NCBI GenBank assembly: GCA_964624735.1
Contig: CAZUXN010000002.1
Coordinates: forward strand, 1 to 43,282
Reading direction: 5' to 3'
DNA from: Candidatus Woesearchaeota archaeon
GTDB taxonomy: Archaea > Nanobdellota > Nanobdellia > Pacearchaeales > GW2011-AR1
Length of the DNA: 43,282 nt
In this document: one piece after another, positions 24,065 through 25,335 of the stretch
How the letters are laid out: the number at the start of each line of letters is the position of its first letter
How positions within the stretch are numbered: the stretch's first letter is position 1
The notes under the pieces: generated by a model
Told to the model about the DNA's origin: nothing
Database searches by the model: none
Seen by the model: the letters and a program-made list of their open reading frames with translations, nothing else
Position numbers and translations under genes: made by a program

Positions 24065-24331
24065 TTAGAGAAGGGGGAGTTTTAAAGTTTGGGTTAGGTG
24101 CTTTCTTAGGTTATAAGTATTGGCTGACTTCACATGTGCTTGCCAGCCTTGAAATATTTCTAAGATTTCGTTTGTAGGAATGTGATTGTTGTGAAATAGT
24201 TGTATTTTTCTTTTCATACCCTTTATGTTTCTTTGTCTTAGTAACTTAAAGTAGTAGTAGTTTCTGAATCCTACGAAGTCTACTCCTTTTGATAATGATA
24301 TAATTTTTGATTTGTTTTTGTGAGATTTCAT
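24065..24331 (-). pseudogene. C-terminal ~85-aa remnant of a DGR-type reverse transcriptase
   Basis: KGVDFVGFRNYYYFKLLRQRNIKGMKRKIQLFHNNHIPTNEILEIFQGWQAHVKSANTYNL closely parallels the recalled Bordetella phage bRT C-terminus (GINFLGYRIWPTHKLLRKSSVKRAKRKV...FLASWSGHAQWADTHNL). The finger/palm motifs (YxDD) are missing. Confidence 0.65.
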
Positions 24332-24361
24332 ATATTTGCCCAAGAGATTGGCTATTCCGAG

Positions 24362-24434
24362 GTCGGAGTTCGTATTCGCGAGATTGTCGTTCCTGGCGTC
24401 CAGGTTGCCGTCGTCCGCATAAAGCCTCGACAAT
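24362..24434 (-). repeat. Template-repeat-like copy of the 3' end of the 24628..25335 gene
   Basis: 73-nt hand alignment to 24676-24748 gives 59 identities. It sits directly 5' of, and in frame with, the RT remnant. Confidence 0.6.
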
Positions 24435-24552
24435 AATGATAGCCTCTTTACCGATTACCACCATGGCTTCAATATTCATGATGTTTCAATTACTAATTGT
24501 TGTCATTGAATTTTACTGACTCATTTAAGAGTTCTAATAAAGGGGCATGTGG

Positions 24553-24569
24553 CCTAGTCCCAGACTAGG
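24553..24569. other. Perfect 7-bp hairpin between the VR-like and TR-like repeats
   Basis: CCTAGTC-CCA-GACTAGG flanked by GGGG/T-run on the + strand (A-run/CCCC on the minus strand). Confidence 0.6.
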
Positions 24570-24627
24570 GGTTTTTTGAAGAATTTTAGGCTTTTAATTA
24601 TTGTTGTATTCTAAAATATATATTAAC

Positions 24628-25335
24628 CTATTTTTTCGAGCCGACGCCTTCGGCGTGAACCAGCCCCACCCGGCCATCGCCGCCCGAATCCGCGAGATTG
24701 TCGTTCCAGACGATCAGGTTGCCGTCGCCCACATATAGCCTCGACAATCCGGTCCGTTTTGTAAAAACTTTAATCTTAGTACCATCAAACTCTATTTTTT
24801 TTTCGTTATTTGAATAGGCGAATCTTGGGTCTATGATTATTTGTGTTTCATCTGTTTCTACAAATTTGTATCCTTGTTTGGTATTTGCTTCGGCTATTCT
24901 TAATCCGATAAATCTTGCTGGGTTTTCTGAGTCGTAAGATATATTACCTTGGTTTTTTGCTATACCTGCTAAGTTAGTTGATGGTTGGGATACATCGTTT
25001 GAGTAAAGTATTGCTTCTTTTATGTCGGCGTATATTCCTTCGAATGGGTTTATATTGTTGGCTTGCCCATGGGCGATTATTCTTACTGCGTCTTCTAGGG
25101 ATAGGGTTGCTATATTTGTTCCTTTTAGGAGTTCTGTTGTTGCTATTACGAAGGGTAGACTTGAGCCTGTGGCGTTTTCTATATTGAATCCGGAGTTCAT
25201 GATTGTTTTGTATCCTGGTGAATCTTTACCAAATCTTCCGATTAGAAAATCATTTACCCTTTGATACATAGATAAATCTGCTTGTATAATTCTTAATCCA
25301 TTTGTTGCGGGGATATCTATGTTTAGGTTTGCCAT
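24628..25335 (-). CDS. Hypothetical protein; candidate former DGR target (VR-like C-terminus)
   Basis: 235 aa, no recognised fold. The last ~35 aa (SRLYVGDGNLIVWNDNLADSGGDGRVGLVH..) are encoded by a locally GC-rich stretch repeated at 24362-24434. Confidence 0.6.
   Translation of the reverse strand: MANLNIDIPATNGLRIIQADLSMYQRVNDFLIGRFGKDSPGYKTIMNSGFNIENATGSSLPFVIATTELLKGTNIATLSLEDAVRIIAHGQANNINPFEGIYADIKEAILYSNDVSQPSTNLAGIAKNQGNISYDSENPARFIGLRIAEANTKQGYKFVETDETQIIIDPRFAYSNNEKKIEFDGTKIKVFTKRTGLSRLYVGDGNLIVWNDNLADSGGDGRVGLVHAEGVGSKK
24676..24748 (-). repeat. Variable-repeat-like copy (inside the CDS 3' end)
   Basis: See 24362-24434. There are 14 mismatches, 7 of them at adenines of the RT-proximal copy. 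Confidence 0.6.

Follow-up and report, generated by a model that had tools for sequence, protein, structure and literature searches.

A minus-strand locus of a DPANN archaeon that is very probably an inactivated, vertically inherited diversity-generating retroelement

Is the locus between valS and aRF1 described here a diversity-generating retroelement (DGR) that has died, one that is still in use, or no DGR at all? The locus lies in a stretch of 43,282 nucleotides, referred to as the window, where the minus strand carries in this order valS, a gene for a 235-aa variable protein with a VR at its 3' end, an RT-16 RNA, the TR, a remnant of a reverse transcriptase (RT), aRF1 and scpB. The gene valS (25390-27855, minus strand) received the NCBIfam name valine--tRNA ligase at 802 bits; aRF1 is found at 22880-23971 on the same strand. 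The original prediction, made from the sequence alone, had placed here a 235-aa gene, a spacer of 193 nt between this gene and the repeat (24435-24627) and a perfect 7-bp hairpin within the spacer, and all of them are at the claimed positions according to the ORF list and the coordinates.

The RT remnant (24065-24331, minus strand, located by tblastn) consists of 88 codons, namely codons 1-6 and 257-339 (motifs 6-7, thumb). Motifs 1-5 are missing, and with them the YxDD active site and LGNLTSQ, the signature of DGRs. The segment matches residues 251-334 of an intact orthologous RT of 339 aa with 81% identity (tblastn E=7e-39). It is 90-91.5% nucleotide-identical to the related loci L011 and L015 and shares 80-84% protein identity with the C-termini of intact RTs. 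A protein search with the fragment gave RTs of DPANN archaea. The RT identity and the likeness to Bordetella bRT that had been proposed for this segment are borne out by this match and by the orthologue, since the L011 RT aligns with Bordetella bRT (PDB 8ub7_A) over residues 2-326 with E=2e-50 and reads LGNLTSQLFA against IGSLTSQLFA. A check with RT models was less favorable for the remnant itself, which had no RVT_1 (Pfam) or NCBIfam match; there the evidence comes from the tblastn match to the intact DGR RT. We regarded an RT as that of a functional DGR if its catalytic domain is complete, with motifs 1-7, YxDD and, within motif 4, [LIV]GxxxSQ. The L011 RT shows all of these features, whereas residues 1-6 and 257-339 are all that is left in the window. 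No further RT was detected by tblastn in the 43-kb window.

The missing part comprises RT codons 7-256, which is exactly 250 codons or 750 nt in frame, in agreement with the roughly 750 nt estimated earlier. The RT had also been called truncated. While its loss stands, a 5' truncation does not, because the RT's own ATG and its first six codons are kept (MKSHKN, 24314-24331) and the deletion is thus internal. In L011 the RT starts with ATGAAAACTCATAAAAATCTTTAC (M K T H K N L Y), and its codons 253-260 are CTTCACAAAAACAAATCAAAAATT (L H K N K S K I), which places CTCATAAAAAT at codons 4-6 and, further on, TTCACAAAAAC at 254-256. In the window both sides meet in one copy, ATGAAATCTCACAAAAACAAATCAAAAATT (M K S H K N K S K I). 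Therefore, compared base by base with L011, a single copy of the 10-nt direct repeat TCACAAAAAC has been left at the junction (24314-24323, minus strand, codons H-K-N) and 750 nt are gone. Such a junction in a short direct repeat, together with the fact that the data are consensus sequence, could suggest an assembly artefact or a minority allele collapsed across TCACAAAAAC. We consider this very unlikely: a repeat of 10 nt is far too short to mislead an assembler, the adjacent 44-nt patch (see below) is a true sequence difference and involves no collapse, and three more contigs, assembled from different JGI samples, show 100% identity along 1.8-2.1 kb across the junction. Three independent assemblies being identical, the junction is not a misassembly.

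The remnant is free of stop codons. It is also part of a longer chimeric ORF in the ORF list (122 aa, TTG start, 24065-24433, minus strand), in which the TR, read in the frame of the VR, runs into the RT remnant; this ORF is annotated as a protein in the JGI data (P0001). The fusion of TR and RT in one frame had been pointed out before and is present. Nevertheless, it is an in-frame accident and no designed feature: in L011 the equivalent frame stops at a TAG just past the TR, and the 122-aa ORF is accidental read-through, a by-product of the rearrangement. The peptide LYADD in this ORF was considered as the YxDD of an RT, as it is at the right distance from motif 6, and was rejected since it is TR read in the VR frame. 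SRLYA... is a conserved motif of the target protein, and the DD of LYADD stems from an A-to-G change in the window TR. Open reading frames of 88 or 122 aa with 80-84% protein identity to intact RTs and a dN/dS below 1 (0.36 for the remnant) might instead point to an RT thumb-domain protein domesticated for a new function. This idea appears highly improbable. The dN/dS value is an average that takes in the period before the deletion, and it exceeds that between intact RTs (0.07-0.13) three- to fivefold. Moreover, the short form is absent from other lineages, and the short RTs in databases are frame-split halves, none of them consisting of the thumb only.

The repeat pair provides the second line of evidence. 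A repeat search found a direct repeat of 64 nt with 86% identity (24371-24434 versus 24685-24748), and the best ungapped repeat score of 37 compares with a maximum of 13 in 30 shuffles of the same 1.6 kb; therefore, the repeat is far beyond chance. For the 73-nt pair (24676-24748 versus 24362-24434) the count made by hand in the original prediction was reproduced exactly by computation, with 14 mismatches that fall on 7 of the 20 TR adenines and on 7 of the 53 other bases. The adenine bias thus persists after computational alignment (Fisher one-sided p=0.04). As had also been stated, it is not the clean pattern of an active DGR: in a functional TR/VR pair nearly every mismatch is at a TR adenine, for example with 10 or more adenine mismatches and no more than 2 others per 100 bp (Paul 2015), and the VR (24668-24748, minus strand) differs over 80 nt from its own TR (24354-24433, minus strand) at 9 of 21 adenines and 10 of 59 other sites. 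The VR was delimited as the repeat of the TR, and the variable columns of the target-family alignment coincide with its differing positions. It encodes ...SRLYVGDGNLIVWNDNLADSGGDGRV and is now frozen. In the TR, the 5' 66 nt are orthologous to the L011 TR and the 3' 14 nt belong to a replaced block. When the VR is compared with an ancestral TR, obtained as the majority rule of three sequences, mismatches are found at 12 of 24 adenine sites versus 5 of 56 others (p=1e-4).

The same locus with valS, variable protein, TR, RT and aRF1 occurs as a complete DGR in L011-L014, L017 and L001. These relatives with an orthologous DGR are Woesearchaeota/Nanoarchaeota MAGs. L011-L014 (identical to L018, a 'Candidatus Woesearchaeota' MAG) have a single RT of 339 aa, and all 13 mismatches in the 82-nt TR/VR pair of L011 are at TR adenines. 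Similar results were obtained for L017 and L001, where 19 of 19 and 18 of 19 mismatches are at adenines. Identity of aRF1 is 94-96% among the window, L011 and L015, and 82-84% to L017. The presence of intact syntenic DGRs with adenine mismatches and a bRT-like RT means that the ancestral element was a bona fide DGR. On the sequence evidence, we take this DGR to have been vertically inherited at this chromosomal site. An ordinary duplicated gene end (a "ghost") beside an unrelated RT pseudogene, with no DGR history, would at first sight suit the weak adenine bias of the window pair alone (7/20 versus 7/53, p=0.04). However, this is extremely improbable and is refuted by synteny, the orthologous loci being textbook DGRs. 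Besides, the bias becomes sharper against the ancestral TR, and RT-16, an IMH-like motif and a GRA hairpin are in their canonical places.

In L015 and L016 the RT has two frameshifts. Their TR has lost adenines, as adenine sites account for 12 of the 16 positions where it departs from the L011 TR (p=4e-5), and the template itself appears to have been mutagenised.

The elements that accompany the VR are those expected of a descendant of a DGR. At the 3' end of the target ORF, the VR is followed by an IMH-like element and by an inverted repeat with a GAA loop, which belongs to the GRA/GRNA type. The IMH-like element GGGTGGGGCTGG (24657-24672, minus strand) has a TGGGGY motif, encodes RVGLV and is conserved nearly base for base in L011, L015 and L017. 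The DGR target hairpin ACGCC-GAA-GGCGT (24644-24656, minus strand) with its GRA loop is located inside the target ORF and conserved in relatives. Paul et al. described TGGGGT as the IMH of nanoarchaeal DGRs together with an intragenic hairpin with a GRA loop (PMC4372165), and both are matched by the elements of the window. The perfect 7-bp hairpin of the spacer (CCTAGTC-TGG-GACTAGG, 24553-24569) is a different feature, namely the first stem of RT-16.

The RT-16 RNA (Rfam RF03019; 136 nt, 24434-24569, minus strand) is a structured leader that adjoins the 5' end of the TR. With 83.8 bits against a gathering score of 50 and a match to the full model (positions 1-158, cmscan) it is a member of the Rfam family. 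In 17 of 18 DPANN DGR loci scanned, RT-16 is found just upstream of the RT, and the eighteenth has no upstream flank. In all five relatives with a mapped TR it ends at the start of the TR or within a few bases of it. Examples are L011 (RT-16 4770-4904, TR from 4905), L017 (2384-2520, TR from 2522) and L001 (5151-5322, TR from 5323). Taken together, these positions at the TR boundary and upstream of the RT imply that RT-16 would be the 5' leader of DPANN DGR template RNAs. Weinberg et al. listed RT-1 to RT-19 as RNAs near RT genes in 2017 and assigned only RT-10 to a DGR (PMC5737381). RF03019 was published there as being "near RT genes" with no role given, whereas here it adjoins the 5' boundary of the TR and, in the window, persists without a working RT. 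Upstream of RT-16, an A+T-rich spacer (TTAATATATATTTTAGAATACAACAATAATTAAAAG, 24570-24627, minus strand) is nearly identical in the window, L011 and L015, compared with about 80% identity in the flanking coding DNA. It is probably a putative archaeal TATA-type promoter of the template RNA. A scan for sigma-70 promoters and terminators was set aside because the host is an archaeon.

The target gene (24628-25335, minus strand) has an intact ORF of 235 aa in the ORF list and orthologues at the same locus beside DGR RTs, with 45-69% protein identity. Seven close relatives of the protein were found, on contigs with the order valS, target, TR, RT and aRF1, and a profile search gave a family of about 200 representatives at E<=1e-3. 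G+C content has maxima of 0.63 in the VR and 0.53 in the TR, with a background of 0.30-0.40. The dN/dS of the target gene versus L011 is 0.36-0.44, and some purifying selection is therefore still acting on it. DGR variable proteins display the VR on a C-type-lectin (or Ig-like) fold. The target protein had no sequence match in Pfam, NCBIfam or the PDB, and neither AvpA nor a lectin was recovered in PDB sequence searches with the target alone or with profiles of 7 and 61 sequences. The fold prediction that had been called for yielded an AlphaFold model from 61 sequences with pLDDT 93 and pTM 0.90; an earlier model from a 7-sequence alignment had a pLDDT of 65, and the fold search made with it was set aside. 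Foldseek with the final model found nothing significant in the PDB, where the weak best matches were C-type lectin domains (Langerin, DC-SIGN) at E>=0.1. In BFVD, tail fibres of crAss-like phages matched best, again weakly (E=4e-3, probability 0.9). A divergent lectin-like fold of the target is possible based on this model. In the model the invariant RVGLV, encoded by the IMH-like DNA, forms a beta-strand, which parallels the beta5 strand RFxGV of AvpA (PMC5006420).

The non-adenine mismatches of the window pair are explained in large part by a replaced block at the 3' end of the TR. In blastn, the L011-type locus aligns with the window up to 24368 (80%) and resumes at 24323 (90%), so that a block of 44 nt in the window (24324-24367, minus strand) stands opposite 790 nt in L011. 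These 44 nt comprise the TR 3' end with TCGGAATAGCC, a spacer and the RT start codon; they carry CTCGGAATAGCC and the start ATGAAATCTCACAAAAA, and cannot be aligned to L011, L015 and L017, which are nearly identical to one another there. The same block type is present in more distant DPANN DGRs (L001, L004, L019, L021, L088 and L091). A GGAATRR motif about 30 nt upstream of the RT start was found in 37 of 83 distinct DPANN loci, and its counterpart is the TGGAAT IMH* described by Paul et al. in 2015 (PMC4372165). At TR positions 68-80 the VR equals the L011-type TR but for A-to-G changes (GGCGATGGCCGGGTGG in the window VR, GACAATGGCCAAATGG in the L011-type TR), and the window TR differs at 10 of 16 bases. 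Each homing copies the TR into the VR, and the VR has the L011-type sequence here; hence the last homing started from an L011-type TR. Exchange of the block would thus have followed that event, with no homing since the change. Another DGR cassette probably supplied the new segment through recombination. A metagenome scan with the TR core gave only known contigs and revealed neither a source of the 44-nt patch nor a full-length RT allele. Outside the block, polarised by outgroup TRs, three non-adenine mismatches are VR-specific (T>A, C>T and C>T) and three are TR-specific (A>G twice, T>A once). The earlier claim that the repeats are drifting thus holds for a few point changes in both copies, but most of the non-adenine mismatches lie in the swapped block.

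The preserved cassette raises the question whether it is still used, with the RNA of RT-16 and TR being reverse-transcribed in trans by the RT of another DGR and the grafted 44-nt end serving as adaptation to it. RT-16, TR, TCGGAATAGCC and the target ORF with its IMH-like element and hairpin have all stayed intact, and nanoarchaeal genomes often hold at least 4 DGRs plus RT-less partial cassettes that have been proposed to be remotely served (PMC4372165). We nevertheless regard such use as unlikely. The VR keeps the old TR type at positions 68-77, which is inside the tract mutagenised in L011 and would have been overwritten by homing, and it has three VR-specific non-adenine changes. Moreover, the VR is identical in four assemblies, but this is weak evidence because six assemblies with the intact L011-type locus likewise show 100% identity to one another. 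By a related account the cassette was re-wired, so that the graft is the recognition segment of a second DGR in the same genome and the locus an RT-less satellite template served in trans; this, too, we judge unlikely.

Synteny with intact DGRs, the window having the same locus with 750 nt of RT removed, supports the earlier interpretation of the whole locus as a DGR inactivated by deletion. Synteny with L011-L014, L017 and L001 combined with the residual adenine bias (12/24 versus 5/56) is what we expected of a DGR remnant, and with 9 adenine and 10 non-adenine mismatches over 80 nt the pair is outside the range of a functional TR/VR. The region is thus very probably a chromosomal DGR that was inherited vertically in a Woesearchaeota/Nanoarchaeota (DPANN) archaeon and has been inactivated. 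An internal deletion such as that of the 750 nt is an ordinary way for DGRs to die. What counts against a fossil is that there is no obvious decay in the TR, in the RT-16 leader or in the cis elements that belong to the VR. Together with the stop-free remnant this means that the deletion is recent or that parts are still constrained.

Judging from the intact relatives and established DGR biology, the ancestral transcript would have contained the RT-16 leader, a TR of about 80 nt and the RT mRNA. The RT would have converted the TR into cDNA with misincorporation opposite adenines. This cDNA would have replaced the VR at the 3' end of the gene for the 235-aa protein, presumably a surface or ligand-binding protein. 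Two elements within this gene, TGGGG (IMH-like) and the hairpin with the GAA loop, would have guided the cDNA. Recombination between the TCACAAAAAC copies at RT codons 4-6 and 254-256 may then have removed 750 nt in frame, so that fingers and palm were lost together with the catalytic YxDD motif. The 44-nt segment between the 3' end of the TR and the RT start would, in the same or a closely linked event, have been exchanged for that of another DGR type. The VR would have been frozen since and would have retained the 3' sequence of the old TR type, while a few ordinary point mutations may have arisen later in both repeats. The target gene would now represent one fixed variant with an intact ORF and a dN/dS below 1. 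We infer the order of these events, the microhomology-mediated recombination and a second DGR as patch donor.

Comparable remnants are known. Paul et al. described RT-less 'partial DGR' fossils in Nanoarchaeota (DUSEL4) in 2015 (PMC4372165). The DGRs of this group resemble the window in their DPANN host, an orphan variable protein of about 235 aa with a short VR near the C-terminus, an IMH of the TGGGG type, an intragenic GRA-loop hairpin and no recognisable Avd gene. As in the window, the partial DGRs of DUSEL4 have lost RT function with the history of adenine mutagenesis still visible. However, the RT is absent there, whereas the window RT has lost an internal part and kept both its ends, with TR and leader RNA still in place; this allows a reconstruction of the inactivating event at single-base resolution. 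AvpA was not recovered with the window target, whose sequence has no detectable match to any PDB chain.

The DGR of Bordetella phage BPP-1 is likewise comparable. Its bRT can be aligned with the orthologous RT from end to end (E=2e-50), the LGNLTSQ/IGSLTSQ motif included; the TR precedes the RT, and the target, which is mtd in BPP-1, carries the VR at its 3' end. The IMH, the hairpin and adenine-specific mutagenesis are shared with the intact relatives of the window. In contrast to BPP-1, the window locus has no avd gene, a compact target-TR-RT order of about 1.9 kb, a hairpin with a 3-nt loop inside the ORF and a destroyed enzyme. Furthermore, the RT-10 element of BPP-1 is 3' of the TR (PMC5737381), whereas RT-16 is 5' of it in the window.

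Split RTs are a further observation in this group. RT genes of DPANN archaea are often annotated as halves of about 150 aa, and 47 of 73 database matches (the window's own ORF excluded) begin exactly at MPLGNLTSQ. In six lineages a (GA)5-13 tract between RT motifs 3 and 4 puts the halves in different frames, with a relation of -1 in L001, L004 and L007 and of +1 in L102, L104 and L106; in L019 and L021 the (GA)n tract is in frame. Programmed ribosomal frameshifting was rejected as explanation since both the -1 and the +1 relation occur. The pattern would fit slipped-strand phase variation of the RT genes. No link of DGRs with repeats of the (GA)n type was found in the literature searched.

Taken alone, the locus of the window is one more dead DGR, and RT-less fossils of Nanoarchaeota have been known since 2015. 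Its value is that of a cleanly reconstructed case in which one orthologous locus is seen in four states: intact (L011, L017), off at the (GA)n tract (L001), frameshifted with an adenine-eroded TR (L015) and deleted (window). DGRs of such reduced genomes are vertically inherited and repeatedly lost, and the diversified gene is kept. Moreover, the orphan Rfam motif RT-16 gains a concrete role as putative 5' leader of DPANN DGR template RNAs, and the split genes suggest that many DPANN DGR RTs are phase-variable. The role of RT-16 and the phase variation of the RT would be more interesting than the fossil itself, and both can be tested.

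The RT-16 RNA of Rfam was found just upstream of the reverse transcriptase (RT) in 17 of the 18 DPANN diversity-generating retroelement (DGR) loci scanned. In the window it lies at 24434-24569 on the minus strand, and it occupies 4770-4904 and 2384-2520 in the intact loci L011 and L017, respectively, and 5151-5322 in the distant relative L001. Moreover, the 5' boundary of the template repeat (TR) coincided with the end of RT-16, exactly or within a few bases, in all five relatives with a mapped TR. No role has been assigned to this RNA in the literature; its position in these sequences suggests that the DGR template RNA carries it as a 5' leader.

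The locus of contigs L015 and L016 is an independent decay of the same orthologous DGR. Its RT (5006-6019) carries two frameshifts, and adenines are gone from the 5' 55 nt of its TR (4908-4983), which differs from the L011 TR at adenine sites in 12 of 16 differences. This loss of adenines resembles the outcome of mutagenised cDNA homing into the TR itself. The intact L011-type locus, including its variable repeat, was 100% identical in six assemblies from different samples (L011-L014, L018 and L101). Therefore, consensus contigs are a poor guide to DGR activity.

The variable-protein gene of the window (24628-25335, minus strand) belongs to a family of about 200 representatives at 50% clustering (members P0076-P0228). 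Its AlphaFold model was very confident (pLDDT 93). No significant PDB neighbour of this model was found, and C-type lectins and crAss-like phage tail fibres were weak structural matches.

Between the RT remnant and aRF1, the window contains an intergenic tandem 14-nt motif (TAGCTATTAGCTGT / TAGCCATTAGCTGT, 23986-24013), which reads ...CTAACAGCTAATGGCTAACAGCTAATAGCTA on the minus strand, upstream of aRF1, and is conserved in L001 at about 6500-6540. Besides, an Rfam tRNA match of 126 nt and 51 bits at 2487-2612 on the plus strand, where ARAGORN called no tRNA, is probably an intron-containing archaeal tRNA.

Many DPANN DGR RT genes are split into two ORFs of ~190 and ~150 aa by a (GA)5-13 tract, which lies between motifs 3 and 4 of the RT. 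The frame offset at the tract was -1 in three lineages (L001, 5959-5973; L004, 1445-1463; L007, 5973-5982) and +1 in three (L102, L104 and L106, about 2440-2480), while two were in frame (L019, 3545; L021, 3528-3554). With the window's own ORF left out, 47 of 73 database matches start exactly at MPLGNLTSQ. The tract pattern together with these proteins suggests that many DPANN DGR RTs are phase-variable.
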